Made by a program: the position numbers and the translations under genes
Shown: piece after piece, positions 275 to 41,458 of the stretch
Layout of the letters: each line of letters opens with the position of its first letter
Numbering within the stretch: position 1 is the first letter of the stretch
The notes under the pieces: generated by a model
What the model was told of the DNA's origin: nothing
The model's input: only the letters and a program-made list of their open reading frames with translations
The model's database searches: none
Assembly (NCBI GenBank): GCA_964650355.1
Contig: CAZYTL010000005.1
Span: forward strand, 23,209-87,208
Origin: an uncultured Gammaproteobacteria bacterium
Lineage (GTDB): Bacteria; Patescibacteriota; Microgenomatia; CAYXHB01; CAZYTL01
Length of the DNA: 64,000 nucleotides
Reading direction: 5' to 3'

Positions 275-2425
275 TCAATTAACAATTACCTTTCCCCAAT
301 CAATCGTATTCACCTTCCCGTCTCCGGTCATATCTCCTAATCCCGTCAACCAGTTTGTCAGTAAATACTTCAGGTCCCTTACCCTATACCTTACCTGATC
401 ACTAATCACCATCTCCCCAAACACTGTCGAGTCTCCCGCCGGCTTGCTACTTCCTACCGGAAACCATAATAAGTAATCGTCTCTTCCTCCTCCGTCATCA
501 TCATCATTAATCCCTAAGTCAAACCCGATCATCTGATTCACCGGTGCATTACTCTGCCCTAAATTCCCCCACGGTATCGCTGCCTCTACCACATATCCAT
601 TACTCCCACTTACTACCGCATGCTCTACACCCGTAGTTCCGCTAATTATCCCCTGCTCAGCAATCCGATTAGTCAAATCAATCGTATATTGATGGTCATT
701 CCCGTCATACCCTGCCTGTCCGTCCCTGTCCCCGTCCACAAATATCTCTACACTATCATCGTCCCAGATGTTGGCTGCCTCATTACTTAATACATCATCT
801 GTTACCCTAACTCCCACATACAAATATTGCTCATCCCATGCGGCCTGCCAGCTCCCGCTCACATCACTTGCCGGCTCATTCACCTGCGCATACCCAAACT
901 CTCCTTCGTTTACTGGTATCCCTTCCCAGTCACTTAAATCCCCGTCTATCACCATCGGCGCCACCACCCGATTACTCTCAGCTCTCGGCCACGGTGCCAT
1001 TGTCGGTGTCGGACTGGTTGTCGCATCTGAAGGGTATTCATAAGCACCCATGTCAAACCCTCCTCCTTGTGGCCTGCTCACCCCAGCATAATCAAACGTG
1101 ATCCCCTGGCTAGTTAGGTCTACCCCACCATCTATCGCAGGAGAGTCACCTTGCAGTGAATAATCATCTGCCCCCGCATTGATAAACTTCACATCAGAAA
1201 CATTTGTCTGCGTCAAATTATCTGACACTACCACATTGTTCCCGCTCCCGATCGTCACATACCTTTGTTCCCCGTCTACGATAATGTTATTCTGTACTCT
1301 ATTATTATTGCCTTTATCGTTATTAAAAGCTATACCATTACGACTGGGGTTTATGATTGTATTATTCCAGACATAAATACTCTTCCCTACCACACCCGCC
1401 GGCGCCACTTTTATCCCGTTGTAATCTGAATTTAAACCCGGTCTGACTATCACGTTATTATAAATCCTGTTACCTCCATTACCTTGGACGTATATTCCTG
1501 TACCCCATCCGTCTTTGATTAAATTATTGTAAATATTACATACGCTCCCTAGATTATTCATTACCCCGCCTGAAAACCCCGGATCATGTGCCTGACTATC
1601 TTTGTAAATCAAATTATGGTGAATTCCGCAATCCGCTATTGCCGACCCTACTTGAATCCCCTTCATGCCAATGTTTTCCACTCGATTGTTATAAATATTC
1701 ACCCCCCTCAACACCGAATCATAAACATACTCTGTTCCGCTATTACAACTCAAACTCCTCCCCTGGTAGAACGAGCTGCCAATATAAAAAGCCGAATGTC
1801 CTGTACCATGCACATAATTATCATGCAAGACTGAATTATACTGTGTAAATTTGCTCCGGTTCACCACATCATCCAAATCACCTACTTTTATCCCGTCCCC
1901 GTCGTAATCATACGCATGCCAGTCACTGGTCGATCCGTCAGAACAGACCGCCACCGTCTTCGCTGATATCCCAATTATTGGCACTCCTGATACCTCAATG
2001 TGATCCACCTCAAAATCACTCGTCTTGTTGGGCATCGTTATCCCGTTTGCCGTCGAGTGAATAATCTTTATCCCGTACTTGACTTGAGTGTCACCTGTCC
2101 CGGTAATCTTGATATACTTGCTGTTTTGCACCAAAATCCCCTCTGACGTCGTTGAGTTAATCACCACTTGCCCACCGAAATTAATAAACGTAATTGGCGT
2201 ACTCGTGTCTCTCAAAAAATTTCTTAACTTCAAACTATCTCTATTTCCAGATAAAATGCACACTGTATCACCAGGCTGCACAGCAGCATAATTTTCCCTC
2301 CCGTCCGCAATCGATACGTTCACAGGAATCGTATAATCACAACTCACAGCTCCGTAAACCGTTCCTGGAACCATCAACCACCCTCCTATCACCATCATGA
2401 ACAACCAAACCAATCTTCTCCTCAT
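275..2425 (-). CDS. Secreted beta-helix family protein. Signal peptide, conserved N-domain (AVSCDYTIPVNVS..GDTVCI..GNR), parallel beta-helix repeats, PT linker, CBM9-like module, C-terminal dockerin-like tail.
   Basis: 716 aa ORF with a hydrophobic N-terminus. It has repeated NN.I/YNN beta-helix rungs and a TSPTPT linker. The CBM9-like block is DGDLSDWEGIPVNEGEFGY...DDDSVEIFVDGDRDG. The tail is LLTNWLTGLGDMTGDGKVNTIDWGKVIVN. Confidence 0.8.
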   Translation of the reverse strand: MRRRLVWLFMMVIGGWLMVPGTVYGAVSCDYTIPVNVSIADGRENYAAVQPGDTVCILSGNRDSLKLRNFLRDTSTPITFINFGGQVVINSTTSEGILVQNSKYIKITGTGDTQVKYGIKIIHSTANGITMPNKTSDFEVDHIEVSGVPIIGISAKTVAVCSDGSTSDWHAYDYDGDGIKVGDLDDVVNRSKFTQYNSVLHDNYVHGTGHSAFYIGSSFYQGRSLSCNSGTEYVYDSVLRGVNIYNNRVENIGMKGIQVGSAIADCGIHHNLIYKDSQAHDPGFSGGVMNNLGSVCNIYNNLIKDGWGTGIYVQGNGGNRIYNNVIVRPGLNSDYNGIKVAPAGVVGKSIYVWNNTIINPSRNGIAFNNDKGNNNRVQNNIIVDGEQRYVTIGSGNNVVVSDNLTQTNVSDVKFINAGADDYSLQGDSPAIDGGVDLTSQGITFDYAGVSRPQGGGFDMGAYEYPSDATTSPTPTMAPWPRAESNRVVAPMVIDGDLSDWEGIPVNEGEFGYAQVNEPASDVSGSWQAAWDEQYLYVGVRVTDDVLSNEAANIWDDDSVEIFVDGDRDGQAGYDGNDHQYTIDLTNRIAEQGIISGTTGVEHAVVSGSNGYVVEAAIPWGNLGQSNAPVNQMIGFDLGINDDDDGGGRDDYLLWFPVGSSKPAGDSTVFGEMVISDQVRYRVRDLKYLLTNWLTGLGDMTGDGKVNTIDWGKVIVN

Positions 2426-2475
2426 AAATTCACTCTACCACGAATCACACATCACGAAGCACGTAACGATAGGCA
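2426..2475 (-). promoter_or_regulatory. Family promoter. -10-like TGGTAGAGT 6 nt upstream of ATG, with degenerate ACGTAAC sites further upstream.
   Basis: The plus strand reads cat|aaattcactctaccacgaatcacacatcacgaagcacgtaac. On the coding strand this is GTTACGTGCTTCGTGATGTGTGATTCGTGGTAGAGTGAATTT ATG. Confidence 0.5.
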
Positions 2476-2637
2476 AGAAACATGTAGCAAAAAACAAAAA
2501 ACTGAGAAACTAAGAGACAACGTAGTTACCTAATTACAACAAATTACTACTTTCTACTACCTACTTCCAAAATTCTTACTCCTGAATTCGAAATTCTATC
2601 TTCTATATTCTCATTTCTGATTCCTGTTTACCAATTA

Positions 2638-2717
2638 CCTGCCCGCAATGCTACGCCAGCCCGCAGTAGATACAGCGTTTCTGGCGGGTATAACGTTGCA
2701 GGCGGGCTGATTACCGA
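2638..2717. repeat. GC-rich palindromic element (cctgcccgcaatgctacgc...ttgcaggcgggctg) just 3' of a family gene. Probably a terminator or REP-like element.
   Basis: Imperfect inverted repeat gcccgc/gcgggc arms. A second copy lies at 32795-32850. Confidence 0.5.
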
Positions 2718-4679
2718 CTACTGACCACCGACCACCTTTCCCCAATCAATCGTATTCACCTTCCCATCCCCGTTCTGATCCAACAACCCATCAAACCAAC
2801 CCCCTAACACCTGCCTCAACTTTTTCCCTAATCCCATCTTTATTCCATAGATATCTACCTCCGTCAAACTATTCCACTCATTGGTATTATTTATATGCCC
2901 CAAATACCTCACGTATCTCCCTTGTATATCCGAAAAATCATATACCTCCTGCTCGAGAGTCATTCCGCTGCTTTCCCCACTCCACACCGTCTCCCAATTT
3001 ACCCTGTCACTCGAAACCTGTAAGTCAAACTTATTCATTCTACTGTCTCCTTGATATACCCCGATCCTCACCAGTCCCACCGTCCTCACTACACCTAAAT
3101 CATATTCAATCCATTGTCCGTCTCCGCTCGCTGACCAACGGGTACTCAAATCATTATCCACCGTATTTCCTGATAGGTTAGTCCCATCGTCTCCACTTGT
3201 CCTCACTCTACTAACGTCAGGCGTTATCTCCTCATACCTGGGATCAATCGTTGGTGTGGGCCGCGGAGTTACACTTGGTGCGCTGTTCATATATTCATCT
3301 GCTCCCACATCAGATCTGGCTATTCCGTCTCCGTTACCATCTTGAGGTCGTGGCTGATCATCTATATCTCTGACCGCATACCCACTACTACTGCCCTGAT
3401 CTATCGCCGGAGAGTTTACCGTTAAATGAAAATCCAGTTGTGACGGATCTTTAAACTTGACCGCATCTCTTTGGCCGTAAACTAAATTATTATAAGCATT
3501 CACATAATTACTTACCACTCCTGTCTCTAAAGTCTCGGCTATCAAATTATCATAAACCGCCCCCTGTTTTGGAGTTGAACTGACTCTGATTCCGCTCCGA
3601 GAACTTTTAACAATCGTATTATTATAAATCATTCCTCCATCTCCCAAGTCCCAGTTAATCCCCTGCGCACTTGTAGCCATCCCCGAATTGTAAAAAATAT
3701 TATTGTAAATCACATATCCTCCGATTCCTTGAATATACATCCCCGAACCTCGAGAATTATAGATTTGGTTATTATAATAATTACCAGTAGTCCCCCTATT
3801 TATGATCATTCCAAATCTCCCGTTCCCAGCTGATGGATCTGAAGACAACCCTGCATCCCTAACTATATTATGATGAATATCAACTTCACTTACCGCACTC
3901 CCCACCTGAATCCCGTCCCACCCCGTCCGATCCACCACATTATTATAAACCTTCACCCCTCTCAATACCGGATCATCAACATATTCTGTTCCGCTATTAC
4001 AACTCAAACTCCTCCCTTGGTAGAAAGAACTGCCGATATAAAACCCCTCTGTTCCCACATCATGAACATAATTATCATGAAAAATCGAATTAATCTGCGT
4101 AAAATTACTCCGATTCACCACATCATCTAAATCACCCACCTTTATCCCGTCTCCGTCGTAATCATACGCATGCCAATCGGAAGTCGATCCATCAGAACAA
4201 ACCGCCTCTGTCTTCGCTGATACGCCAATTATCGGCACCCCTGATACCTCAATGTGATCCACCTCAAAGTCACTTGTCTTGTTGGGCATCGTCATCCCGT
4301 TCGCCGTCGAGTGAATTATCTTTATCCCGTATTTGACTTGAGTATCTCCGGTCCCTGTAATCTTGATAAACTTACTGTTTTGCACCAAAATCCCTTCTGA
4401 CGTCGTCGAGTTGATCACCACTTGCCCTCCGAAATTAATAAACGTAATTGGCGTACTCGTGTCCCTCAAAAAATTTCTTAACTTCAAACTATCTCTATTC
4501 CCGGCTAAAATGCAAACTGTATCTCCTGGTTGCACACCAGCATAATTACCCCTCCCGTCTGCAATCGATACGTTCACGGGAATCGTATAATCACAGCTCA
4601 CCGCTCCGTAAACTGTCTCTGGATTCATCAACCCCCCTGCTATCACCATTATGAATAACCCGACCAGATTTCTCCTCAT
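2718..4679 (-). CDS. Secreted beta-helix family protein with C-terminal F5/8 type C (discoidin) domain and dockerin-like tail.
   Basis: 653 aa. The first 230 or so residues are nearly identical to the 275..2425 protein, including at nucleotide level. The discoidin block is SGNTVDNDLSTRWSASGDGQWIEYDLG. The tail is LGGWFDGLLDQNGDGKVNTIDWGKVVGGQ. Confidence 0.8.
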   Translation of the reverse strand: MRRNLVGLFIMVIAGGLMNPETVYGAVSCDYTIPVNVSIADGRGNYAGVQPGDTVCILAGNRDSLKLRNFLRDTSTPITFINFGGQVVINSTTSEGILVQNSKFIKITGTGDTQVKYGIKIIHSTANGMTMPNKTSDFEVDHIEVSGVPIIGVSAKTEAVCSDGSTSDWHAYDYDGDGIKVGDLDDVVNRSNFTQINSIFHDNYVHDVGTEGFYIGSSFYQGRSLSCNSGTEYVDDPVLRGVKVYNNVVDRTGWDGIQVGSAVSEVDIHHNIVRDAGLSSDPSAGNGRFGMIINRGTTGNYYNNQIYNSRGSGMYIQGIGGYVIYNNIFYNSGMATSAQGINWDLGDGGMIYNNTIVKSSRSGIRVSSTPKQGAVYDNLIAETLETGVVSNYVNAYNNLVYGQRDAVKFKDPSQLDFHLTVNSPAIDQGSSSGYAVRDIDDQPRPQDGNGDGIARSDVGADEYMNSAPSVTPRPTPTIDPRYEEITPDVSRVRTSGDDGTNLSGNTVDNDLSTRWSASGDGQWIEYDLGVVRTVGLVRIGVYQGDSRMNKFDLQVSSDRVNWETVWSGESSGMTLEQEVYDFSDIQGRYVRYLGHINNTNEWNSLTEVDIYGIKMGLGKKLRQVLGGWFDGLLDQNGDGKVNTIDWGKVVGGQ

Positions 4680-4754
4680 ACATTCACTCTACCATAGCCC
4701 AAAGATCGCGTAGCCCGCATCGCATCACGCGTAAATCTACCATCTCTTTTTTCT

Positions 4755-6650
4755 TTACAACAGACCACTTATCACCTTCCCCCAATCCCAACTATTTACC
4801 ACCCCATCTTCGCTCCCGTCTCCTGCACTACCTAACCAATTACTCAACAAAAACCTCCACCCCGGTTCCTGGTATACCAATCTAATCGCATCTGCCACCA
4901 CATCTTCTCCTCCGCTTACCATATCACTAACCGTCACCGACCCTTGATTAATAAAATAATATTTTCCCAACAGATTCCATTGCTCGTTACTTACCTGCTG
5001 GTTCACTCTTACTTCTTCTGCTCCTCCGGTAAAATTTATCGTATACGGTACATCAGTTGGCCGTATCATCGATGGCCACCAACTCGCATATACCTCATAC
5101 TCTCCCGGCCGGTTAACCGTAAACGACCACGTAGCTGTATCTCCGCCTCTAATCAAATGGTTAAACATATGCGAACTACCGTAGTGCAACCCCTGGGGAT
5201 CAACGTATTCCTGCCACATATCCTGCACAAACGCAGTGCTAAACCCCTCATCGACATTATCAATAATCATCTCATTTGGATTTACAGTTGGTGTTGCCAT
5301 CGGACTCATACTTACATACTCATACGCTCCCATATCTGGTTTGGAATCCCGTGAATTACCTTCAAAGTCAAGGCTGACTCCTACCGCTGTTCCCTCATCT
5401 CTTACCAAACTATCAGACACTAACCGAAAATCATTCACTGCCCTGTCCACAAACCCCGGGTCCACATGCAAAGTATTTGGCCCATCCAAAGCATGGCTGG
5501 TCCCTGGTCCTCCGTACCAATCATTATAATCCATCACATTACTGCCCGATAAACTCCGATTATTAATCTGCTCATCAGTATTAAAGGCTGAAATATTGTC
5601 AATGATCCGGTTATTTTTCAGATTCTTAAAATCTGCAAATAATATTCCTGTCCTATTACCCACCACCGTGTTGTGGTAAATTTCATTTCCGTACCCCACC
5701 ACCGTGTCTGCCGGCCAACCATCCAGTTTGCCCGCGTCCAACCTGATTCCGGAATACGGATTCCCGTAAATCAAATTATTGGTTACTTTAGTCAACCTCC
5801 TCACATAAATCGCCGCCTGTGTATAATTACGACCGCATTCATAAATTCTATTACCGTCAATCACATTGGCGTCCGGCGACCCGATTCCAAAATGTCCACA
5901 ATCAGAAATCGTATTTCCCTGTATCAGGGTACCCACGGCATTCAGCTTAGTATCCACCCCTTCCCATACATTATAAATCGTATTACCAATCACTTTATTA
6001 TTCCGACAATGATGTGTATAACTAGCCCCGCCTTTGGACACATAAATCCCTTCACCTAATGAAATATCATAAACTTCATTATTTTCTAACAAATTATCAT
6101 CGCACGACGGATAATCAGGATTGTCATAGTGAATACCAATCTTAATTCCAATTGTCGTCCCGGAATAATACGTCGGATCTATATAAATATGATGAATCTT
6201 CATCCCCCGCACAATATTGTGGTCCGCCCATATATTCATCGCTTCTGCAATGAAATTCTTCAGCTCTAATCCTTCAATAATCCAGTAGTCATGCTTGATT
6301 CCCAAAAACTTTTGCACCACATAATTGCCGTCAATCACCACCCCGCTCGACTCTGGTTTAACCGTGATCGGTGCCTGAGCCGTTCCACTAGCCGCAGTTT
6401 CAGCGTACATATACAAAGGACTACTCCCCCCTCCGCCCACATTATAAGTACCACCTCGAATCAACAACCGGTCCCCGGCTCTTAGTTTGTTAATCCCGTA
6501 GCTGATCGATTTCCATGGGCTCTGACTGCTTCCGCTGTTGCCGTCATTTCCTGTGGTCGCCACATAATAATCCGCTGCCAGCGCTGTTTTGGACATTACC
6601 AGATTCATCCCCACGCCTATCAATAACCAAACCGCGATTCTTCTTAACAT
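4755..6650 (-). CDS. Secreted right-handed beta-helix protein (DYYVATTGNDGNSG...PW type N-terminus), with a beta-sandwich carbohydrate-binding-like module and dockerin-like tail.
   Basis: 631 aa with a signal peptide. The N-terminus AADYYVATTGNDGNSGSSQSPWKSI is typical of pectin-lyase-fold proteins. The C-terminal module is DTATWSF..PGEYEVYASWW..VPYTINF..VVADAIRLV. The tail is WRFLLSNWLGSAGDGSEDGVVNSWDWGKVISGLL. Confidence 0.75.
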   Translation of the reverse strand: MLRRIAVWLLIGVGMNLVMSKTALAADYYVATTGNDGNSGSSQSPWKSISYGINKLRAGDRLLIRGGTYNVGGGGSSPLYMYAETAASGTAQAPITVKPESSGVVIDGNYVVQKFLGIKHDYWIIEGLELKNFIAEAMNIWADHNIVRGMKIHHIYIDPTYYSGTTIGIKIGIHYDNPDYPSCDDNLLENNEVYDISLGEGIYVSKGGASYTHHCRNNKVIGNTIYNVWEGVDTKLNAVGTLIQGNTISDCGHFGIGSPDANVIDGNRIYECGRNYTQAAIYVRRLTKVTNNLIYGNPYSGIRLDAGKLDGWPADTVVGYGNEIYHNTVVGNRTGILFADFKNLKNNRIIDNISAFNTDEQINNRSLSGSNVMDYNDWYGGPGTSHALDGPNTLHVDPGFVDRAVNDFRLVSDSLVRDEGTAVGVSLDFEGNSRDSKPDMGAYEYVSMSPMATPTVNPNEMIIDNVDEGFSTAFVQDMWQEYVDPQGLHYGSSHMFNHLIRGGDTATWSFTVNRPGEYEVYASWWPSMIRPTDVPYTINFTGGAEEVRVNQQVSNEQWNLLGKYYFINQGSVTVSDMVSGGEDVVADAIRLVYQEPGWRFLLSNWLGSAGDGSEDGVVNSWDWGKVISGLL

Positions 6651-6740: not shown

Positions 6741-7277
6741 TTAATACGCCTTTCTCCCTATTACAGCCACCTTGCTCCCATCCACAATAACGGGAATCAC
6801 CACCTGATTACCAATCTGGTAATCTCTTTCTTGCTCTTTATCATTAACAAGTACTCTTAAATCATAAAGTGGATCTCTAGTATCTTCCGTCGAGTCAGCC
6901 AAAAACACGCTGGGTTGAGTACACATACCCCGACCAGGTGGACAAGCTTTTTCCCCAAGCAGAGTACTAATCACATACCCGGAAACCTTAACCATAGAGC
7001 CGTTCAAAGCACTCCGGTGTTCAACCACATATTTGACCGGTATCGGCTCTTGCGGAAGTGAACCAACAGATAAATCAGGATATGGCGCTAAACCGGCCTC
7101 ATTAGGATCCTCGGGTTGGATCGTTGCACTGGAAAGCTGCCCACTTCCCTGGCTCACAGGAGTGTTAACACCACTGTCCGGTCCACCGCCCAACCCCTTT
7201 TGGTAGTAAACCAAAAATATCACCACTCCCACCAGCACTCCAATCACCATCAGTAATCTGGTTGTCGTTTTTTGCAT
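6741..7277 (-). CDS. Hypothetical protein anchored by an N-terminal TM helix.
   Basis: 178 aa. The TM segment is LLMVIGVLVGVVIFLVYY. No family motifs. It lacks the family promoter box. Confidence 0.45.
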   Translation of the reverse strand: MQKTTTRLLMVIGVLVGVVIFLVYYQKGLGGGPDSGVNTPVSQGSGQLSSATIQPEDPNEAGLAPYPDLSVGSLPQEPIPVKYVVEHRSALNGSMVKVSGYVISTLLGEKACPPGRGMCTQPSVFLADSTEDTRDPLYDLRVLVNDKEQERDYQIGNQVVIPVIVDGSKVAVIGRKAY

Positions 7278-7333
7278 ATATAATACCAGCTTAACATAAA
7301 CTCAAATTCAGATTCAGCCCTAATTTTCTAATC

Positions 7334-9562
7334 TTAATTATCAAAACGCCCCCCCTCCACCCAACTCACCCCATTCTGCAAACTCCCATCATTGTGATTA
7401 CCCGTCGCGTCGTGAACCACCGTTCCGCTGCCTTCATTAAACTTCCAGTAACCCACCAACCCGGCTGCACCCAGATCAACCTCTCGACTCATATCTGACT
7501 GAATCTGTTGCTGAGTCCTGGCATAATTCCACAACCTCAATTCGTCTTCCTCTCCCTGCAAACTGTAACTACTTACCGCTGAAGAAATATACATATCTTC
7601 TGTCGTGCCAATGGATCTCCCATTCAAAACACTTATATCAAAGTTCCCCACCAAATTTCCATCTAAATAAAAGCTCGCCTGCTGACTCCTGTCAGCCACC
7701 ACTGCCACCTGATGCCACTGATCATCCTTGATCCCCAACGACTTATCTGAATTCGCATATACAACCTGGCTTCCATCCCCCAAATATAATCTCAAATCAT
7801 CATCCTGGTTTGAATACCAAAACCAATACCCCGGCTGAGAAGCACTGCTCGCGCCCTTATAATCAATATTGAAATTTGAATTCTGCGTACTTGCCACCTT
7901 CACCCAAGCTTCAATCGAAAAATCCCCGCTCCCTACATCCAACTCCGGGACGTTAGCAAACCTCACTCGGTCGTCTATCCCGTCAAAATGCACCGCATAT
8001 TTAACCGGCGGCCTAATGATTAACTTCGCCCAATCCAGACTATTGATCACTCCGTCGGCTACTCCTTCAAAAATCTGGTTATTAGTCAACCAGCTAACTA
8101 ATAAACTCTTTGCCTGAGAGGCCCAAGGTATCGGCGTTACCGTCGGTGTCGGCACTATCCCTGACGCATATTCATACGCCCCGATATCATAAACTCCTTC
8201 TTGCGGACGGCTAATTCCCAAATAATCACTAGTGACAAAATCCACTGTTGTACCCGCATTAACCGCTGGCGATCCCGATTGCACGGAGTAATCACCACTG
8301 CCCGGATCAGTAAATTTTACCTCCCCCACCGTGGGGCTCGATAAGTTATTCGTCACCAAAACCCCGGCCGTAGTCTTAATATACGTCTCGCCGTTTTGGG
8401 GATTTACCACCAAATTATTTTGCACTAAATTATCGCTTCCGAAATCCTGATTGAACAAAATTCCCCATCCTCTTGGTTTCACAATCGTATTATTGGCAAC
8501 AAAAACACTATTACCATGATTTATTTTTGTACCAACATATATACCGCTCCCGTTAGCACTAGTATAAGAACTGTACCTACCCGGATTTATAATCACATTA
8601 TTAAACACATGATTCAACCCATGTCCCTGCACATAAATTCCGGCTCCAATAATGTCCGTAATAAAATTATTATAGACATCACACACACTTCCCGGATTAA
8701 TCATATAACCTCCCTCATGTGCTGTCTGCTGTTCAGTTCCTGTATTTGTTATCCGATTATGATGCGCGTCGCAATTTTCCACTGCTGATCCGATTTGAAT
8801 TCCCTTAGTGCCGATATCTTCCACCTGGTTACCGTAAACATGCACGCCCTTCAAAACCGGATCATAAATCGTGGCTGTTCCTCCGCAATTTAATTCATAA
8901 GCTCCCTCTACATAATGCGAACTTCCTAAATACATCCCCATCGAAATATTGTAAATATATATGTCATGAAAAGTAATGTTGTGTGTAGTTATTTCGGTTT
9001 ACCGCATCCTGAGCATCAATTTCTCCATCGTTATTATAGTCATACCCTCTCCAGCTGGTGGGGGACCCGTCTGGGCAGGTCGAATCCGCCTTACTTGACA
9101 CTCCGATTCCGGTTCCTCCTATTCCGGTGATTTCCAAATGATCGACTTCAAAATTGTCAGACTTATGCAATAAATTAATTCCCGTATTCGTAGATCCTGA
9201 AATCTTTATTCCGTAATTCACCCCTGCCGCCCCCGTTCCCGTAATTCTAATATGACTGCTATTGCTCACTTCTATCCCCGAAGACTGGCTGGTATTAATT
9301 ACTACTTGCCCCCTGAATTAATAAAAGTAATCGGTGTCGTGGACGATCTTTTAAAATTTATCAAATTCAACGCTCCTCGGTTTCCGGCTTCAATACACAC
9401 CGTATCTCCGGGTTTCACACTCGCATAATTACCTCTACCGTCAACCCTTGTTACCCCTGTGGAAATAGTAAAATCGCAACTCAGTGCTTCATAAACTACT
9501 TCCGGACTCATCATCCACCCGATCACGATTAATCCAACCATCCAAATCAATCTTCTCCTCAT
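7334..9562 (-). pseudogene. Disrupted member of the beta-helix family, with an internal dockerin-like module and a C-terminal LamG (concanavalin-like) domain. It is split into three ORFs by two frameshifts.
   Basis: ORF 9302..9562 carries the signal peptide and N-domain and stops at ...PITFINSGGK*. The intact paralog continues SGGQVM, so a 1-nt shift is likely. ORF 8964..9269 continues (IRITGTG...NRNNYTQHYFS*). ORF 7334..8941 resumes the helix in another frame (HDIYIYNISMGMYLGSS against paralog HDNYIHDVGAEALYIGGS), then carries SLLVSWLTNNQIFEGVADGVINSLDWAKLI plus LamG. Confidence 0.7.
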
Positions 9563-12777: not shown

Positions 12778-12780
12778 ATT

Positions 12781-13173: not shown

Positions 13174-13177
13174 CAAT

Positions 13178-13720: not shown

Positions 13721-13723
13721 TAC

Positions 13724-32729: not shown

Positions 32730-32794
32730 GTCTTCACTCTACCACGGGTCAAGCATCACGAGCACGTAACAATAACTTCTTTAGACTCCTGATT

Positions 32795-32850
32795 ACCGTT
32801 TACCATTTACCTGCCCGCAATGCTACGCATCGCGTTGCAGGCGGGCTGAT
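32795..32850. repeat. Second copy of the GC-rich palindromic element (cctgcccgcaatgctacgcatcgcgttgcaggcgggctg), 3' of the pectate-lyase gene.
   Basis: Sequence identity to 2638-2717 apart from an internal expansion in that copy. Confidence 0.5.
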
Positions 32851-34418: not shown

Positions 34419-36536
34419 CTACTGACCATTGACCCTCACAGTCCAGTCCCAGCTATTCACTTTCCCATCCCCATTTCCGTCTCCTGTTACTCCAAACCAA
34501 CTACTCAGCAAATACTCCCACCCAGGTCCCTGATAAACTAATCGCACCGCATCCGCCACCACATCCTCTCCTGAACTGGCCATATCACTTACTACCACCG
34601 ATCCTTGATTCATAAAATAATGTCTCCCCAATAGATTCCATTGCCCGTCAGTTACCTGTTGATTCATCCTCAACTCGTCTGTCCCTCCGGCAAAATTGAT
34701 CGTGTACGGCACATCAGCAGGCCGCTTCGCCAATGGCCACCAACTCGCATACACATCATACATTCCCGGTTTACTTACACTAAATGACCAGGTAGCTGTA
34801 TCTCCGTCTCCTATCAAATGATTAAACAGATGCGATCCTCCATAGTGCAACCCTTGGGGATCAACGTATTCCTGCCAAGCATCCGGCCCGGATGTGGTTC
34901 GGAATCCCGCGTCCGCGTTATCCACAATCACCACCTCTATATCAGGTGTAGGAGTTGGCGTCGGGGATAACGTCGGCGTCGGCGAAGCTGAACCCGGGGT
35001 CGGAGTGGGAATCGTCCCTCCGTACACTCCATCCAGAGTTTTCCATAATCCCCCACTGCTTTGCCATGTAACCGAAATCCCTCTCTCCGCCATAATTCTG
35101 TCTTCCATAGGCCAGGGCCACAACGGCTGAGTCGTTAATACTCCGTCTTCGTAACGATATATTACATCCGCCCCCACATCTCCTCCGTTTTCTCCTTTGC
35201 CAGCCAATTCCGTCCTTGAGGCCATTAAATAAGCCCCGTATCCGTATTTGCCCACCGGCCAATTAACCGTTAACGAACTTTCATTACTCCCGCTACTGGT
35301 ATTGAAATAAGGATGCGTCATCACCGGTGTGAATCGATTTTGAGAGTGTGTCAACAAACCGGAAACCCCGCTTTCTTTATAGAAAGCGTACCCGGAATCC
35401 AATCCGCCGAAATAAGCATCCCTCACTTCCAAGGCTCCGGAGTTTCCTTCGGCCAGCACCACACCTCTGGCAGCAGCGGCATTGCTGATCCACGTAAAAT
35501 TCCTTACCTGGTTATTACTACTTTTATTCGAAGACACGCCCCTGGGTGCTGATTCTGCGTTCGTGGCGTTAATCGCCACAATATTTTCCATCCGACAACC
35601 ACTACACGACGTAAAGTAATAAGAATTTCCCTTGCCTTCCTTAATTACCGACCCCAAAACTTTCTGGTTTTGTCCCGGAATAATAATTCCGTGCACCGGT
35701 GCGCTATAAGCATTACCCGAGCTGTCTTTTCCGTGGCATGGCAAAGCCTCCGCACTGCCATTAAACCCGATCGCATTTTCAATCACCGTATTATAACCTC
35801 CGTATACTTCAATATTTTGACACCATGCATACTTATCAGGATTGCTGAATTTCTCCCACAGATTAAAAAATCTCCGCACAGTCACATCATACGTATCCCA
35901 ATCAACCAGCAAACCATGAATCCCTTCCCCGTAAGCTGCTCCGTCTTCAATTAAAATATCATGCGTATAAATCAATTGATTATTTGTGTCTCTACCTCCT
36001 CCTTCAATTTTAAACACCGGATTCCACAACCCCTTCCCGTCTCTGGCAGACACCCTTCGTAAACGAACATCATGCGACCCTGATCCCGCCACCCCGCTCA
36101 CCCCCTTGATCGTTACCGGTGAACATTGCCCCCCCACAATATTGGGATTTGAACATTTTCTAAAATAAATCCCTTCAACATCAATATAGCTTGACCGCTC
36201 TATCCACAAAGTCAAACGTTGATTCTCACCGTCTACTACAACCTGGCCGTCATTAATTGCTCTAATTACAATCCGTGCATCAACCCTGCCTTGTTTATTT
36301 ACCACCTTCATTGCCTGTCGATACGTCCCGTTATAAATATTTAATCTATCTCCGAGACCCAATTCTCCTATCGCGTGGGCAAAAGTCGCCCACGGACTCT
36401 GACTGCTACCACTGTTACTATCACTCCCGTTCGTAGCTACATAGTAATCCACCGCCCACACCGGTTTAGTTACCACATTCAAATTCATCCCCACTCCGAT
36501 CAATAATCCAACCACCGTAACCATTCTTATCTTCAT
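34419..36536 (-). CDS. Secreted beta-helix protein with beta-sandwich carbohydrate-binding-like module and dockerin-like tail.
   Basis: 705 aa. The N-terminus is AVDYYVATNGSDSNSGSSQSPWATF. The CBD block is DTATWSFSVSKPGMYDVYASWW. The tail is WEYLLSSWFGVTGDGNGDGKVNSWDWTVRVNGQ. Confidence 0.75.
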   Translation of the reverse strand: MKIRMVTVVGLLIGVGMNLNVVTKPVWAVDYYVATNGSDSNSGSSQSPWATFAHAIGELGLGDRLNIYNGTYRQAMKVVNKQGRVDARIVIRAINDGQVVVDGENQRLTLWIERSSYIDVEGIYFRKCSNPNIVGGQCSPVTIKGVSGVAGSGSHDVRLRRVSARDGKGLWNPVFKIEGGGRDTNNQLIYTHDILIEDGAAYGEGIHGLLVDWDTYDVTVRRFFNLWEKFSNPDKYAWCQNIEVYGGYNTVIENAIGFNGSAEALPCHGKDSSGNAYSAPVHGIIIPGQNQKVLGSVIKEGKGNSYYFTSCSGCRMENIVAINATNAESAPRGVSSNKSSNNQVRNFTWISNAAAARGVVLAEGNSGALEVRDAYFGGLDSGYAFYKESGVSGLLTHSQNRFTPVMTHPYFNTSSGSNESSLTVNWPVGKYGYGAYLMASRTELAGKGENGGDVGADVIYRYEDGVLTTQPLWPWPMEDRIMAERGISVTWQSSGGLWKTLDGVYGGTIPTPTPGSASPTPTLSPTPTPTPDIEVVIVDNADAGFRTTSGPDAWQEYVDPQGLHYGGSHLFNHLIGDGDTATWSFSVSKPGMYDVYASWWPLAKRPADVPYTINFAGGTDELRMNQQVTDGQWNLLGRHYFMNQGSVVVSDMASSGEDVVADAVRLVYQGPGWEYLLSSWFGVTGDGNGDGKVNSWDWTVRVNGQ

Positions 36537-36589
36537 ATATTCACTCTATCATGCAAGATTTCATTCCGTATACCTACTCCGTAAATCCT

Positions 36590-37325
36590 CTACCTCCTCG
36601 CCCACCCCACCCCATTGATCAACTGACCGTCGATATGATTACTCGTCGCGTCATGTGCCACCATTCCGCTCCCCTCATTAAACTTCCAATAACCTACCAA
36701 TCCCGGAGAACTCACGTCCACCTCCTTGTTCATATTCCCCTCGATCTCCGCCTCACTTCTGGCCACATCCCAGATTCTCACCTCATCTATCTCCCCGCTC
36801 ATATACTCTGCGCTCAACCTCCCAATCAATAATGGATTGCTATCCTGGTTTATCGTATCACTCCCGACACTGACCTCTTCCACCTTTACTCCGTCTACAT
36901 ATAGCCTCTGATACTGTCCGTCATACATACACGCCATGTGATACCACGTATTATTACTCACACTTGTGTCCCAACTCACCCGACGATTGCCTGCATTAAC
37001 GTAGTTAAAATAACAATTGAAACTGCTTTCATTTACCCACAGTCTCATCTGATTAAAGGCTGTACTCATCAAATTACTATTAGCGCTAAAATTATCAGCC
37101 TTCACCCATCCCTCTATCGTAATTCTATTACCGGGCTTGTATGCGCTACTACTGGGCACTTCCACATAACCATCCACCCCGTCAAAACTTAAACTGTAAT
37201 TCGTATTCATCCCCACTTTCGTTGCCCAATCCAAACTATTAACCTTTCCATCCCCAACCAAATCCAGTCAGGCTCATCCCCAGCCCTATCAATAACCAAA
37301 CCAGCAAGACTAATCTTCTCCGCAT
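36590..37325 (-). pseudogene. Minimal or remnant family member. The family promoter and signal peptide are joined, across a +1 frameshift, directly to a dockerin-like module plus LamG domain.
   Basis: From the ATG at 37325 the reading is MRRRLVLLVWLLIGLGMSL..., stopping after 28 codons. Skipping 1 nt gives LDLVGDGKVNSLDWATKVGMNTNYSLSFDG... open to 36590. The ORF track starts this frame at a TTG (37261). The TGATAGAGTGGAAGT-ATG promoter box is present at 37326-37340. It looks like a deletion derivative of a 23103-like gene. Confidence 0.55.
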
Positions 37326-37381: not shown

Positions 37382-39976
37382 TTACTGACCAACAACTACC
37401 TCTGTCCAGTCCCAACTATTCACCTTCCCGTCTCCATTTATATCTCCTAAACTTGTCAACCAGTTCATCAACAAATACTTCAAATCTCTCATCCGATATA
37501 TTAGCCTGTCTTTAATCACCATCTCCCCAAAAGCCGTGGTATCATCCGCCGGTTTTTTCACTTTCACCGGAAACCATAATAAATAGTTGTCCCTGCTTCC
37601 TCCGTCGTCATCGTCATTGATACCCAAATCAAACCCCATTATTTGATTCACTGATACATTACTCTGCCCTAAATTGGGATCCCAAGGTATGGCTACTTCT
37701 ATCACGTAGCCATCGCTACTGATGGCCACCGCATGCTCCACCCCGGTTGCTTCGCTGATTGCCCCATGCTCAGCTATACGGTTGAGTAAATCAACCGTAT
37801 ATTGGTGGTCGTTCGCATCATAATCAGCCTGACTATCTCTATCCCCGTCTACAAAAATCTCCACGCTGTCATCATCCCATATATTAGTCGACTCGTTACT
37901 TACCAATTGATCATCTGTCACTTTCACCCCTACATATAAATACTGCTCATCCCATGCCATCTGCCAACTCCCGTTCACGTCACTTGCCGGCTCACTCGCC
38001 TCCGCATAGCCAAACTCCCCCTCGTTCACTGGTATCCCTTGCCAGTCATCCAAATTCCCATCTATCATCAACGGCGCAAACACCCGCACTCCTTCCACCG
38101 GTAACCACGGCACTATCGTCGGCGTCGGACTGGCACTACTACTAACTGTTAACTGTCTCCAATTATAACTCAGAGTAGGATACCCTGGATAACTAAGAGT
38201 AAACACGTCTGATCCGTAAGCAAACTGCGCATAAGGACTATCCAAAATCGGATAACTCAAGTCAGCTTTAGTTAACGCCTGTCCGTTAATTTCCCGCCCT
38301 TTTAAAATATCACTGTCATATCGCAGTGACAAACTGGCTCCGTCTTTTGCTTGATAATTAATTTGCGGATAGGTTTTACTAAAACTCACGCTGCGTGATC
38401 GGATATTCTGCTTAAAAGCATCAAAAGACGCATAATCGTCAACATGGGCAATTTCCCCGACTCCACCTGATTTTCCATTTGCCCTTACTAACCAATAACC
38501 ATTCTTTGAATCCCAAACCATTTTTCCACTCTCTCCCCAGGCTCGGTATGCGATATAAGCTTCACCCTGCTGACCAAACCACCACCCGCTATAAGAAGAA
38601 GGTACATCCAATGTCGCATACTTAGGAATGTGCACCTGGGTAAACTCATACGTCTTCCCGTAAGGATTCCATACCTGCATCATCACATTCTTATAAAAAA
38701 GCATCCTCCGCTTCCCTCCGAACTCTATAGTAAAATCTCCCTCTCCGCTACCCGAATTTGCTTGGTTTGGGTCGCTGAAATCACCTGCATCCCCCGGTTG
38801 GATCTGAGTCAACACCGTCCTCTTCCCCCCTGCCTCTTCTGAAGTATAAATGCTATTCGTCTGGCCGTTGTTGGGCCAACCACTTGTATAGGCTTGACTG
38901 CCCCCCATGCCTGCTGCCTGGTTTTTAAGCACAAAATAATTCAACGGGTCTAGCCTCTTGTTGTCTATAAAGATTGCCGTGCCATAATCCCTGATATCTG
39001 AAAAAATGTCTGCCATTCTCCGCCATGAAAAATTTCCCTCAGCCGCCTTGCGGTGATAAATCTCTCTAATGATATCAGGAGGTTGATAACCTGACACCAC
39101 AATCCCCGGAGCTTTCCAGCTTAAAAAACCAGGCACGGGAATCTGCTCGGCAAACAACAACCACTTCCCGGTCAGAGACCAATTATCGTCCTCTACTGCC
39201 CCTTTATAGTCTCTACTTTCCGGCCCCACGTAAAGATTATGCGGCAACAAATTCAACGCGTTATTCAACAAAATATAATCAAGCGCAAACTGAGCCTTCT
39301 TCCGAATCTGCGCATCATTAGAATACGTCAAAGCCGTCAATCCCAAACAGGTGAGATCCGTGTAACTAGCGGAGTTGAATTCGAATTCTCCACTGGTCAT
39401 CATCCTTTCATAAGCCCGGTTAAAACGCATCTTTGCCACATCAATTCTAGTCTGATTCCCCAAAGCCTCCCCTGATAACATCACCGTCGCCGCCCACGTT
39501 ACCAAATGATTACTCATGGGTTCATCTCTGTTATCACCCCAAGTATCGTTCATTGCCCTTCTGAATACCTGATTCTTCAAGTCCGTACTAATACCAATAT
39601 CCGGATATTTCCTCAACCCCAAAACCACACTCACAGTCCAATGGTGATCAGCATTGCTATTGTTTAAACTCAGTGTGGTCTTGATATCTTTTTCCAAATT
39701 AGCCACTGTGTCATCAGAGTACGCCCATCCCCGCTTAATCCGCTCCATTCTGGCCAAAATCACTCCGCCGTTTTTCCGAATATCTCCGTCAATCGTTCGA
39801 ATATTCCTGTCCCAATTTCTAATCAAATATTCCGCGTGCTGATTATAGATCGTTTGATAACCACTCTCTACGATCGCAGCTTCTACAGGCAAAGAAAACC
39901 AGTAGACAAACACTATTGCCATTACTAAGCACACCCCCGTCTTAAATCCCCCGCTAATTAGATTACTTTTTGTCAC
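37382..39976 (-). CDS. Secreted large protein (unknown, possibly polysaccharide-lyase-like N-region) with CBM9-like module and dockerin-like tail. The ORF-track start is a GTG.
   Basis: 864 aa. The CBM9-like block MIDGNLDDWQGIPVNEGEFGYAEASEPASDVNG is about 85% identical to the domains in 275 and 14604. The tail is LLMNWLTSLGDINGDGKVNSWDWTEVVVGQ. There is no TAGAGT box upstream. Confidence 0.7.
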   Translation of the reverse strand: MTKSNLISGGFKTGVCLVMAIVFVYWFSLPVEAAIVESGYQTIYNQHAEYLIRNWDRNIRTIDGDIRKNGGVILARMERIKRGWAYSDDTVANLEKDIKTTLSLNNSNADHHWTVSVVLGLRKYPDIGISTDLKNQVFRRAMNDTWGDNRDEPMSNHLVTWAATVMLSGEALGNQTRIDVAKMRFNRAYERMMTSGEFEFNSASYTDLTCLGLTALTYSNDAQIRKKAQFALDYILLNNALNLLPHNLYVGPESRDYKGAVEDDNWSLTGKWLLFAEQIPVPGFLSWKAPGIVVSGYQPPDIIREIYHRKAAEGNFSWRRMADIFSDIRDYGTAIFIDNKRLDPLNYFVLKNQAAGMGGSQAYTSGWPNNGQTNSIYTSEEAGGKRTVLTQIQPGDAGDFSDPNQANSGSGEGDFTIEFGGKRRMLFYKNVMMQVWNPYGKTYEFTQVHIPKYATLDVPSSYSGWWFGQQGEAYIAYRAWGESGKMVWDSKNGYWLVRANGKSGGVGEIAHVDDYASFDAFKQNIRSRSVSFSKTYPQINYQAKDGASLSLRYDSDILKGREINGQALTKADLSYPILDSPYAQFAYGSDVFTLSYPGYPTLSYNWRQLTVSSSASPTPTIVPWLPVEGVRVFAPLMIDGNLDDWQGIPVNEGEFGYAEASEPASDVNGSWQMAWDEQYLYVGVKVTDDQLVSNESTNIWDDDSVEIFVDGDRDSQADYDANDHQYTVDLLNRIAEHGAISEATGVEHAVAISSDGYVIEVAIPWDPNLGQSNVSVNQIMGFDLGINDDDDGGSRDNYLLWFPVKVKKPADDTTAFGEMVIKDRLIYRMRDLKYLLMNWLTSLGDINGDGKVNSWDWTEVVVGQ

Positions 39977-40009
39977 TATTTTTAATCTAGCACACCCTTA
40001 CAGTTACCA

Positions 40010-41458
40010 CTACTGTTTTACCACTCTTACCCAATCCCAACAATTCACCTTCCCGTCTCCATTCTGATCTCCGATGGCGCTAAACCAATTGACCAACCAC
40101 GACTTCAAATTAGTCAGGTCTAAAGAAATTTTTTCAATCCGGATTTTGTCAAGTTTGGTGTTCATTTCCCGTCCTTGAAAGCGGAGAGTGTAGACCGGCC
40201 CGTTTGTGAGAGTAAAGATTCGGGGATCAGTTTTAGGCGAATCAAAAGTACCGCTGCCCCGGTAGCTGACCTGATTCCAAACCCAAGAAGTGGGAGGTTG
40301 AGTATCAATGGTTTGGTAGAGGATATCCCAGATGTCAGCAGTAGTAGGAGAGGTTTGGTTGATGGTAACGTAGAAGGAGTTATCGTTACCGGCAGTAGGC
40401 CAGACTCTGCCTGAGACTAAGTAGTCACCAGATTGGGCAACTCTGAATTGGAAGGCGGCGTTTCCATTATCTGCTTGGGAAGAATAGATATATTGACCTC
40501 CGGAAGCCGTGGAGTCAGAGTTGATAGTCATGGAAGATAGTTGCATAGACTCGGCCTCCGATTCATAGGCAGTTTGGATCAGAGCCGGAGTAGGTGTCGG
40601 GCCGGTCGTTGGGGAAGGCGTAGGAGTAGATGTGGGACCTCCCGGACAGGGAGGTCCTCCTTGATCAGGATTCACTTCTGCACAACTGGTACCTCTCCGA
40701 TACTCATCGTGATAGATAATCTCTGTATCACTATAAATGTCTTTGTTTCTATAAATCCCCATCTTCAAATAAGGCCCAGTATTATAATCGTAATCGTAGC
40801 CTACTGGCCCACCGTAATCTAAAACAGGATCCGGATTGCCATCCATCCAAACCCTCACATAATGGTTTCCTGATAGTCGGTAATCAAAACGAGTATTAAA
40901 AATAAAATCATGCCATACTCCCTGTGTTGCTTTTCCAATCCATTTATCCTGATTAGATCCTTCTGTAGATCTGATGCCAATATAAAAATCGCCCCCATAA
41001 ATGTACTGCAAGCTTAAAATCGGGCTATCTCCTCCGGTAGCCGCATGCCATTGGGCTATTATATTAAATCTGTAAGAACCATTTGGCTGATACCTAGGGT
41101 CAATATATACTGAAAACCCCTGCCAAACGTCTGTTGAATAAGGGATTTTGTCTTGATCATTAGCTCCATTTAACATAATTTCGGAGCGTTCATTTCCTCC
41201 CATGGGGTTTGGTGTGGGTATGTTTCCATCTCGCACTATGTTTCGCACCGCATATTTGCCGCTTCTTACCGGACTGGTTACCACCTGCGTCGAATCGGTA
41301 CAACAATGGCCACCATCTCGCCACCCGCTTAAATCCCCACTCTCAAAATCCAACACCTTGTGTTGAATATATTGAGCTCTTGCTGGGAACACAGCCACAA
41401 ATCCCATTACCCAGCATGCAACCACCAATCCAGCAATTCGCCACCATTTCCTGTCCAT
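40010..41458 (-). CDS. Secreted concanavalin-like putative polysaccharide lyase (PF14099-like jelly roll) with CBM6/35-like module and dockerin-like tail.
   Basis: 482 aa. The lyase block is ERSEIML...QWHAATGGDSPILSLQY. The CBM block is AYESEAESMQLSSMTINSDSTASGGQYIY..FQFRVAQSGDYLVSG..DNSFYVTI. The tail is LKSWLVNWFSAIGDQNGDGKVNCWDWVRVVKQ. Confidence 0.7.
   Translation of the reverse strand: MDRKWWRIAGLVVACWVMGFVAVFPARAQYIQHKVLDFESGDLSGWRDGGHCCTDSTQVVTSPVRSGKYAVRNIVRDGNIPTPNPMGGNERSEIMLNGANDQDKIPYSTDVWQGFSVYIDPRYQPNGSYRFNIIAQWHAATGGDSPILSLQYIYGGDFYIGIRSTEGSNQDKWIGKATQGVWHDFIFNTRFDYRLSGNHYVRVWMDGNPDPVLDYGGPVGYDYDYNTGPYLKMGIYRNKDIYSDTEIIYHDEYRRGTSCAEVNPDQGGPPCPGGPTSTPTPSPTTGPTPTPALIQTAYESEAESMQLSSMTINSDSTASGGQYIYSSQADNGNAAFQFRVAQSGDYLVSGRVWPTAGNDNSFYVTINQTSPTTADIWDILYQTIDTQPPTSWVWNQVSYRGSGTFDSPKTDPRIFTLTNGPVYTLRFQGREMNTKLDKIRIEKISLDLTNLKSWLVNWFSAIGDQNGDGKVNCWDWVRVVKQ
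40150..40640. repeat. Left arm of a roughly 480 bp inverted duplication. It encodes the CBM6/35-like module of 40010 and is G-rich on the plus strand, against the local skew.
   Basis: The reverse complement of 40270-40320 is cctctaccaaaccattgatactcaacctcccacttcttgggtttggaatcag. The matching 43420-43470 reads ctctatcaaaccattgacacccaacctcccacttcttgggtttgggatcag. Confidence 0.65.

Follow-up and report, generated by a model that had tools for sequence, protein, structure and literature searches.

Does a dense array of modular enzyme genes still exchange its modules, or does it record exchanges that took place long ago? The question is raised by a stretch of 64,000 nucleotides (nt) from contig CAZYTL010000005.1 (GenBank assembly GCA_964650355.1, positions 23,209 to 87,208; hereafter the window), in which a dense minus-strand run of genes occupies about 44 kb (1-43737). 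The array contains about 21 genes, mostly on one strand. Nineteen same-strand genes and one divergent gene have products with signal-peptide-like N-termini and belong to secreted multi-module families of carbohydrate-active enzymes, including GH26, PL14-like, PF14099, PelZ-like, beta-helix and carbohydrate-binding module (CBM) families (Pfam and NCBIfam). An earlier note on this DNA had described a cassette system generating enzyme-binder combinations. We conclude, with a probability of about three in four, that the array is a family of tandem genes for secreted, modular enzymes acting on polysaccharides, in a Microgenomates-type bacterium of the Candidate Phyla Radiation (CPR), and that it grew by duplication and by old recombination at the level of the linkers. 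As judged from the families represented, its function is probably the degradation of extracellular polysaccharides. The module map and the mosaic structure given in the earlier note stand; its identity levels were overstated, and the flanking motifs were overstated or misread. That note had not recorded the tail carried by most of the proteins, the promoter-like box at 16-17 gene starts, two decayed genes or a foreign islet that divides the array.

Shared blocks and breakpoints

The usual order in an array product is signal peptide, catalytic module, Pro/Thr (P/T) linker, binding module and a tail of about 35 residues (Table 1; genes are named by their first coordinate). Right-handed beta-helices of family A are found in g275, g2718, g7334, g9650 and g14604, and those of family B (DUF1565/Pel9A type) in g4755, g23103, g25331, g29457 and g34419. 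The remaining catalytic-position modules are GH26 (g27616), a PL14-like module (g18442), a PF14099 lyase (g40010) and a PelZ-like pectate lyase (g32850). Three large modules (in g37382, in g20206 and in the C-terminal part of g16693) are covered by no Pfam family, and PDB sequence searches with these two N-terminal modules and one C-terminal module gave no match. The sole Pfam signal in the large module of g20206 is a sub-threshold PPC domain (residues 63-129).

The binding modules are CBM9 (g275, g14604 and g37382, with a second subtype, b, in g20206 and g25331), F5/8C discoidin (g2718 and g16693), Golvesin_C (g4755, g18442, g27616 and g34419) and LamG (Laminin_G_3; g7334, g23103, g29457 and g36590), all above the Pfam gathering scores, together with one unnamed CBM common to g40010 and g41590. 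In g16693 the block of binding module and tail is placed N-terminally. This is the recurrence that the earlier note had listed, its 'beta-sandwich' module being Golvesin_C.

Shared blocks were identified by an all-against-all BLASTN comparison of the array, synonymous divergence (dS) was estimated from codons, and breakpoints were located by max-chi2 tests with 500 permutations. The shared blocks have 66-87% nucleotide identity, and no array repeat is higher over more than about 50 nt. The best tract lies at the 5' ends of g275 and g2718 (86.9% over 764 nt). The blocks of CBM9 plus tail (g275, g14604 and g37382) are 76-80% identical in BLAST tracts, and the CBM9 copies 74-78% by codon alignment (72-76% at the amino acid (aa) level). 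The Golvesin_C blocks of g4755, g27616 and g34419 are 72-77% identical (BLASTN; 61-73% when Golvesin_C is otherwise measured), the two discoidins 64-70% (57% aa), the blocks of tail plus LamG of g23103, g29457 and g36590 75-80% (LamG itself 75-81%), and the unnamed CBMs of the inverted pair g40010 and g41590 75%. The LamG of g7334 has only 38% aa identity with that of g36590. The longest exact runs are 19-42 nt, no 60-nt segment exceeds an identity of 0.98 and, outside the g275/g2718 tract, none exceeds 0.93. The dS values are 0.52 for the g275/g2718 tract (the array minimum), 0.53 for the LamG of g23103 and g29457, and from 0.85 to saturation for the other shared blocks (0.85-1.39 for CBM9). 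The nucleotide comparison that the earlier note had proposed thus recovers shared blocks and no near-identical repeats. The 5' ends of g275 and g2718, called near-identical there, do share a tract that ends in a sharp break before unrelated 3' parts, at an identity of 87%; the CBM9 module, said to recur almost unchanged, recurs at 74-78%.

The breakpoint analysis, also proposed there, gave one sharp breakpoint per gene pair, the observed value being reached in 0 of 500 permutations. Within pairs, dS is 0.5-1.4 in the shared block and saturated in the remainder, where third-position identity is at background (0.34-0.36). The breakpoints of the blocks that carry CBM9 plus tail, Golvesin_C plus tail and tail plus LamG coincide with P/T linkers or with the first tail helix. 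One LamG duplication also took its flanks along, namely the downstream intergenic region and the first approximately 50 nt of the next gene (23033-23802 compared with 36519-37274). These observations support the view that the array genes are true mosaics made by recombination, as the earlier note had proposed at the level of modules. If there had been no recombination, the genes would be whole-gene duplicates in which the shared blocks evolved more slowly under stronger constraint. The shared blocks are indeed under purifying selection (dN/dS, the ratio of nonsynonymous to synonymous divergence, is 0.12-0.31 where dS is measurable), but synonymous divergence jumps at the breakpoints (for example, third-position identity is 0.73 on one side and 0.34 on the other). 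Moreover, the same binding modules sit on catalytic modules that are not homologous to each other (GH26, PL14-like, beta-helix and an unassigned 620-aa domain), which refutes this explanation; we give it almost no credence.

One exchange lies within a domain. The g275/g2718 breakpoint is at codon 248, inside the beta-helix, with an identity of 0.87 before it and 0.47 after it. In a segment-wise identity matrix (in which the row for g7334, with its frameshifted N-terminus, was not relied upon), g2718 has 89% aa identity with g275 before the break and 31-36% with every paralogue after it, while g275 and g9650 have 56% before and 49% after. Since g275 resembles g9650 on both sides and g2718 becomes an outlier after the break, g2718 is the hybrid and the g275-like side the probable donor. 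We infer that g2718 gained its promoter, signal peptide and first 248 codons from a g275-like neighbour, the outcome expected of an unequal crossover between adjacent paralogues.

Age of the exchanges and rival explanations

No strain-level relative was found in the protein database, and three contig families give species-level comparisons. Contigs L004-L006 carry a full-length orthologue of g9650 with its architecture, including the tail, retained (84.5% nucleotide identity and dS 0.68 for L004). The next gene in L004 combines a g4755-type helix with a g40010-type CBM in place of Golvesin_C and is followed by a g18442-like gene, so that both gene order and module combination differ from those of the window. 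In contig L087 the orthologue of g41590 (75-77% aa) stands next to that of g40010 (73-74% aa; dS 0.52 for the lyase), in tandem between housekeeping genes, and neither has the CBM. Orthologues in relatives are therefore separated by a dS of 0.52-0.68. Because the youngest tracts of the array have the same dS (0.52-0.53), the last detectable exchanges are about as old as the species-level splits. The comparison with metagenome variants, which the earlier note had suggested, thus reveals other module combinations on orthologous catalytic genes (L004 and L087), and supports shuffling over evolutionary time and not ongoing exchange. The same note had taken a fall of module identities to background as the mark of an old divergence; on that criterion the modules diverged long ago, even though they can still be recognised as similar at the nucleotide level.

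An active cassette or gene-conversion system, still exchanging modules within populations, is very unlikely on this evidence. Programmed systems of this type, such as pilE/pilS in Neisseria and vlsE in Borrelia, have one expression site, silent promoterless cassettes and near-identical flanking repeats, and they switch in clonal populations. The array shares with them clustered paralogous segments with conserved flanks: the 5' sequences (promoter and signal peptide) and 3' sequences (tail) that flank every gene could serve as homology handles, exact runs of up to 42 nt occur at tails and, in L087, the tails of the two adjacent genes are closer to each other than to those of their window orthologues. 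The defining features of such systems are not seen. The youngest tracts are as divergent as orthologues of different species, the identity ceilings given above apply throughout, and there are no promoterless donor copies: except for two decayed genes, the copies are complete with their own promoter box and signal peptide (16-17 have box, ATG and signal peptide). No recombinase, reverse transcriptase, transposase or invertase family of Pfam occurs among the window open reading frames (ORFs) of at least 150 aa. We also considered the tails as recombination handles homogenised at the DNA level and rejected this: identical residues across tails use the same codon in 57% of cases compared with 44% expected from codon usage, and the best pair (p = 5e-4 over 109 tests) is, like all others, not significant after correction. 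The modest excess and the conservation of tail DNA are explained by conservation of the peptide and by codon bias. The lack of tail homogenisation, of silent cassettes and of a recombinase removes the cassette system proposed in the earlier note, and a dS of at least 0.52 speaks against ongoing exchange.

Two further explanations concern the origin of the fused genes. They might have been acquired separately by horizontal transfer in their present architectures, the shared modules reflecting common donors. The best outside matches of the family-A beta-helix (50-60% aa) are in Anaerolineae/Chloroflexota, so this catalytic module probably came from outside the CPR, and an islet at 12.4-14.5 kb indicates that foreign DNA does enter the region. 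However, among 5.8 billion proteins the full-length matches of g275 are its same-contig paralogues only, and outside matches end with the helix (61-67% coverage). The binding modules are closest to copies in the same genome, and the tail is limited to relatives with the same strand-bias signature, all of which makes separate acquisition of complete genes unlikely. Alternatively, repeated modules might have caused chimeric joins during assembly. The window comes from a contig of 88.6 kb assembled from a metagenome, and in an independent short-read assembly contig breaks fall within g9650 and g4755. Against this, the copies are 13-35% divergent, too far apart for assemblers to collapse; reading frames, linkers and tails are kept at all junctions; the g9650 architecture is found end to end in three other contigs; and an independently assembled Logan contig (L094, SRR14802573) reproduces 4,376 nt (5454-9829) with one mismatch. 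An artefact of this kind is extremely improbable.

Some points weigh against the old-recombination family that we prefer, or limit it. The relatives compared are species and not strains or populations, so that rare ongoing exchange is possible. The dS values are noisy and inflated in a genome with extreme strand bias (the g41590 orthologue has a dS of 4.3 at 77% aa identity). The enzyme activities rest on family membership, with the three large modules outside any Pfam family or PDB match, and no partner for the tail was found.

In the history that we propose, the family would have grown by tandem duplication and diversified by recombination between misaligned paralogues. Because most junctions fall in linkers or at the tail, blocks consisting of linker, binding module and tail, or of tail and LamG, would have been transferred between unrelated catalytic modules. 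These exchanges would be about as old as the split from the species-level relatives, and the resulting combinations would since have been kept by purifying selection. Gene decay would complete a picture of birth and death. The 5' third of g7334 (8942-9562) is broken by two frameshifts, which are not an artefact of this assembly since L094 includes them, and in g36590 the promoter box and 21 signal-peptide codons (37325-37263) run, in a shifted frame, into a tail cut at its middle and followed by LamG.

Domain shuffling among carbohydrate-active enzymes is textbook knowledge. The locus adds a clean and datable case, with sharp linker breakpoints, one intradomain hybrid, two decayed copies and orthologues in relatives that lack the binding module or have exchanged it. 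Its closest analogue is the glucan degradation locus (GDL) of Caldicellulosiruptor, whose diversity has been attributed to recombination after duplication and which contains near-identical repeated stretches, including a 1-kb downstream sequence in multiple regions (PMC7142884). In the GDL, multi-domain glycoside hydrolases have CBM3 modules and linkers in common. Both loci consist of tandem secreted modular enzymes in which the same binders are attached to different catalytic modules via Pro/Thr linkers. They differ in that the GDL has near-identical repeats, whereas the best tract of the array has 86.9% identity and its longest exact run is 42 nt; in that the array catalysts are mostly of beta-helix or lyase type in place of GH9, GH48 and GH5; and in that the array has a single-repeat tail on 18 of 19 genes, a private promoter box on 16-17 and a CPR host. 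The host and the dockerin-like tail are the less ordinary parts.

The dockerin-like tail and the flanking elements

The tail, with the motif LLxNWLxxxGDxNGDGKVNSWDWxxVIxxL, is present in 19 of the 20 proteins examined, g6741 being the only gene within the array that lacks it. Counted over intact or frameshifted array genes, 18 of 19 carry it, and half of it survives in the g36590 remnant. Fourteen proteins have it at the C-terminus; it is internal, before LamG, in g7334, g23103, g29457 and g36590, and internal, after the N-terminal discoidin, in g16693. The loop is that of dockerins and EF-hands (DxNxDGxxNxxD, calcium-binding), followed by a helix, with D23, N27 and D30 invariant (alignment A1). 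Pfam Dockerin_1 (PF00404) matches the tails as a single repeat, over profile positions 2-26 of 57, at 13.8-21.7 bits compared with a cut-off of 22.9. A profile of 18 tails matches the dockerin of CelS (structures 2MTE and 1DAQ, E = 1.6e-6), with the alignment lying on the loop. AlphaFold (AF2) predicts a helix-loop-helix with a mean confidence (pLDDT, predicted local distance difference test) of 77; a Foldseek search with this 38-aa model gave nothing significant, EF-hand proteins being at the top with E > 2.

Cellulosomal type I dockerins (PF00404; for example, CelS of Clostridium thermocellum) likewise carry the loop GDxNxDGKVNSxD on many secreted polysaccharide-active enzymes. They have two tandem repeats of about 22 residues, while the array tail has one and stays below the Pfam gathering cut-off. 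The tail also has a lineage-specific LLxNWL helix before the loop, is internal in five proteins and has no known cohesin; no cohesin (PF00963) occurs among the window ORFs (Pfam). From these sequence characters we describe the tail as dockerin-like, not as a dockerin: it has the loop and lacks both the second repeat and a score above the Pfam threshold.

A hidden Markov model of the tail gave 635 matches (E <= 1e-3) among 1.84 billion representative proteins. Most are ordinary two-repeat dockerins matching in the loop only. About 35 proteins outside the window carry a single full-length tail, mostly C-terminal, and the tail is restricted to relatives that share the strand-bias signature. The tail-bearing relatives include a PF14099 lyase with discoidin (P0140), a helix with Golvesin_C (P0162), DUF4434 with CBM9 (P0160), a pectate lyase with CBM6/35 (P0236), a lyase with a sialidase-like CBM (P0171), a metallophosphoesterase (P0126) and SBBP propellers. 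The tail is thus attached to secreted proteins across the lineage, preceded by freely combined binding modules. A degenerate DNA pattern for DGKVNSWDW gave no match among genome contigs and one chance match in metagenomes, in a eukaryote-like M3 peptidase (L003).

The choice-of-anchor Q domain (NF041518) ends the beta-helix of g275 (44.6 bits), g9650 (39.5 bits) and g25331 (36.2 bits; NCBIfam cut-off 25). In homologues of g275 from other phyla the helix is followed by lineage-specific C-terminal modules (the type IX secretion system sorting domain PF18962 in Bacteroidota-type proteins, cohesin or dockerin in those of Chloroflexota). The array differs in that a binding module usually stands between the anchor-Q domain and the tail, and the tail is the only shared C-terminal element. 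By analogy, the tail may be the surface-attachment, docking or pairing device of the lineage. A stronger proposal is that it is a lineage-restricted, single-repeat dockerin that displays or pairs the enzyme arsenal on the cell's own surface or on that of a host, the genes forming one co-regulated leaderless regulon and the products the 'mini-cellulosome' of an episymbiont. This would call for an undiscovered cohesin-like receptor, or for two half-dockerin tails that pair into one EF-hand pair, and we consider it a doubtful but not negligible prospect. Were it true, module shuffling around a constant tail would be the way in which the lineage explores substrate space. If the tail mediates surface display, this would also be relevant to how host or environmental polysaccharides are attacked by ultra-small episymbionts.

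As a separate observation, the internal tails before LamG (23733-23846, 30111-30224 and 8009-8122) have lost the calcium-ligand Asn at loop position 3 (GLDLVGDG, GDLVNDE and EGVADG), which suggests that constraint is relaxed once the motif is no longer terminal.

Upstream, 16 array genes have an extended -10-like element, the box TGnTAGAGT-N6-ATG, which lies 6 nt from the start codon (for example, 2440-2423, 4694-4677, 6665-6648 and 25190-25173, minus strand), and g40010 has a variant, giving 16-17; the box is also present at the g40010 orthologue (L087, 7289-7307). In its exact form it is array-specific, and housekeeping genes have -10-like boxes 6-12 nt before ATG. Since there is no Shine-Dalgarno sequence before any window gene, this proximity of -10-like boxes to ATG suggests leaderless mRNAs. 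A generic promoter and terminator scan performed at chance level and missed the conserved boxes, and an inverted-repeat search missed the GC-rich hairpin. TACGTGA / TTACGTGA boxes, some of them paired or palindromic, also lie 20-45 nt upstream of array starts and of the GalT/HIT-like g47411 (6677, 11784, 18258, 25211, 29336, 29350 and 34385 on the minus strand, 47401 on the plus strand). Eight of the 11 window copies are promoter-proximal; possible roles of these boxes are as -35 elements or as the operator of a regulator common to the genes.

Downstream, the earlier note had reported a co-duplicated 3' untranslated region (3'UTR) motif and a GC-rich palindrome. The motif, the 25-nt taccgattacaagttactgattacc, has three copies and is mostly coding: its reverse complement comprises the last tail codons, (K)VISNL, the stop and 6 nt of 3'UTR, and it is conserved because the encoded peptide is conserved. 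The palindrome is real and limited to two copies, directly 3' of g2718 and g32850. In addition, the 3'UTR starts right after the stop with TCGGTAA (TCAGTAA), which echoes the last tail codons GGTAATCAGTAAC (20195-20208, 25320-25333, 9640-9652 and 2707-2720). In g20206 the post-stop sequence reads S-V-I-S-N in frame. This echo may have been left by a small tandem duplication at the end of the gene.

Host, substrate and neighbouring genes

GC skew is -0.16 to -0.48 in all 2-kb bins of the window (1-64000) except that of the islet, regardless of gene strand. Extreme skew in one direction is a published trait of the Microgenomates order UBA1400 (Ch65, Collierbacteria and Beckwithbacteria), Ch65 having 29.8% C and 15.0% G (PMC7143001). 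For GAPDH, the single marker compared, the best matches among species representatives of the Genome Taxonomy Database have 59-61% aa identity and include Woesebacteria and Microgenomates metagenome-assembled genomes. The right third of the window encodes two T4SS_pilin (PF18895) proteins along with housekeeping, glycogen and sugar-nucleotide functions. Scans of the whole window with Rfam and for tRNA were empty, giving no rRNA and no tRNA.

CPR bacteria such as Microgenomates have genomes of about 1 Mb, and the usual description is that they encode few secreted glycoside hydrolases. To us the host is more interesting than the shuffling: more than 40 kb are spent on about 20 secreted enzymes in a CPR bacterium. 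Since Ch65 is without secreted glycoside hydrolases (PMC7143001), a secreted-enzyme array of more than 40 kb in a related type of organism is noteworthy, and our literature search found no description of such arrays or of dockerin-like tails in Microgenomates.

The skew also alters the composition of the proteins: tails whose coding strand is G-rich read GDQNGDGKVNSWDW, and those of g41590 and many relatives TSTFDQ..DGQVNSLDF. The PF14099 lyase gene has a GC skew of -0.07 in the window (40010-41458), and of +0.09 in L087 (7308-8267) amid values of -0.2 to -0.45. The genes g41590 and g40010 are divergent in the window and tandem in L087, and it seems that a fairly recent inversion has changed their orientation with respect to the replication-linked bias.

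Among outside homologues of the family-A helix, the closest full-length ones are in L001 (10001-11914) and L002 (272-1864), from the assemblies GCA_034412795.1 and GCA_034435335.1, others being labelled Chloroflexota/Anaerolineae. They are single genes adjoining exopolysaccharide biosynthesis clusters (Wzy, Wzz-GGDEF, flippase and GT4), which hints at bacterial exopolysaccharide as the substrate class.

Table 1. Window coordinates, strand and content of the array genes, their principal shared blocks and adjoining elements
Feature	Coordinates	Strand	Content
Further array gene, 5' part	1..240	-	Runs off window edge; signal peptide and start of a putative PF14099-like lyase (by resemblance to g40010 N-terminus)
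g275	275..2425	-	Signal peptide, family-A beta-helix ending in choice-of-anchor Q domain, P/T linker (aa 465-481), CBM9, tail 278-388
g275 CBM9 plus tail	281..1017	-	79% nt to 14639-15308, 76% to 37391-38133
g275 shared 5' tract	1677..2440	-	Promoter box and codons 1-248; probable donor side
GC-rich hairpin, copy 1 of 2	2617..2656	-	Directly 3' of g2718
g2718	2718..4679	-	Hybrid: g275-like 248 codons, outlier helix remainder, P/T linker, F5/8C discoidin, tail 2721-2834
g2718 discoidin block	2846..3188	-	70% nt to 17730-18084 (g16693), synonymous sites saturated
g2718 shared 5' tract	3931..4694	-	Partner of 1677-2440
g4755	4755..6650	-	Signal peptide, family-B (DUF1565-type) beta-helix, Golvesin_C, tail 4761-4874
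g4755 Golvesin_C plus tail	4782..5269	-	77% nt to 34443-34930, 72% to 27676-28050
g6741	6741..7277	-	Small membrane-anchored protein, no tail, no array promoter box
g7334	7334..9562	-	Pseudogene: family-A beta-helix, internal degenerate tail 8009-8122, LamG
g9650	9650..11743	-	Family-A beta-helix, unnamed C-terminal module, tail 9653-9766
Foreign islet	12382..14506	+	Four opposite-strand ORFs, not family members
g14604	14604..16622	-	Divergent family-A beta-helix, CBM9, tail 14607-14720
g14604 CBM9 plus tail	14628..15323	-	80% nt to 37406-38101, dS 0.85
g16693	16693..18231	-	Signal peptide, F5/8C discoidin, internal tail 17605-17718, P/T linker, unassigned 290-aa module
g18442	18442..20118	-	PL14-like module, Golvesin_C, tail 18445-18555
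g20206	20206..23049	-	PPC-like module, unassigned ~700-aa module, CBM9 subtype b, tail 20209-20322
g23103	23103..25175	-	Family-B beta-helix, P/T linker, internal tail 23733-23846, LamG
g23103 tail plus LamG	23111..23819	-	80% nt to 29474-30197 (dS 0.53), 76% to 36519-37274
g25331	25331..27568	-	Family-B beta-helix (choice-of-anchor Q), CBM9 subtype b, tail 25334-25447
g27616	27616..29316	-	GH26, P/T linker, Golvesin_C, tail 27655-27768
g29457	29457..32729	-	Long family-B beta-helix, P/T linker, internal tail 30111-30224, LamG
GC-rich hairpin, copy 2 of 2	32789..32828	-	Directly 3' of g32850
g32850	32850..34358	-	PelZ/PL1-like pectate lyase, TSP3-like Ca repeats, tail 32853-32966
g34419	34419..36536	-	Chondroitinase-B-like beta-helix, long P/T linker, Golvesin_C, tail 34422-34535
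g36590	36590..37325	-	Remnant: tail half and LamG, catalytic module deleted
g37382	37382..39976	-	Unassigned 620-aa module, P/T linker, CBM9, tail 37385-37498
g37382 CBM9 plus tail	37391..38133	-	
g40010	40010..41458	-	PF14099 polysaccharide lyase, P/T linker, unnamed CBM, tail 40013-40123
g41590	41590..43737	+	Divergent: beta-helix, P/T linker, unnamed CBM (same as in g40010), tail 43621-43734
g41590 unnamed CBM	43110-43615	+	75% nt to 40129-40637 of g40010, inverted

The homologue of the C-terminal module of g9650 in P0171 scores weakly as a sialidase-like CBM. The islet splits the array; its ORFs (131, 130, 180 and 260 aa) are tightly packed, with a GC content of 0.38 and no GC skew, and the two largest gave nothing in Pfam or PADLOC. 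It looks like recently acquired foreign DNA inserted into the array. Homologues of g6741 (49-66% aa) are found in other Patescibacteria in housekeeping neighbourhoods. It seems to be a conserved Patescibacteria gene around which the array has grown, and not an array member; a role as tail partner or anchor was rejected in view of these contexts.

The youngest mosaic pair of the window lies outside the array coordinates. The two T4SS_pilin proteins (48617-50062 and 50389-51984, minus strand) share their first approximately 232 codons (89% nucleotide identity, dS 0.34) and differ at their ends, one having LamG and the other a carboxypeptidase-regulatory-like region. The corresponding repeats are 49407-50112 with 51326-52034 and 48184-48322 with 50142-50280.

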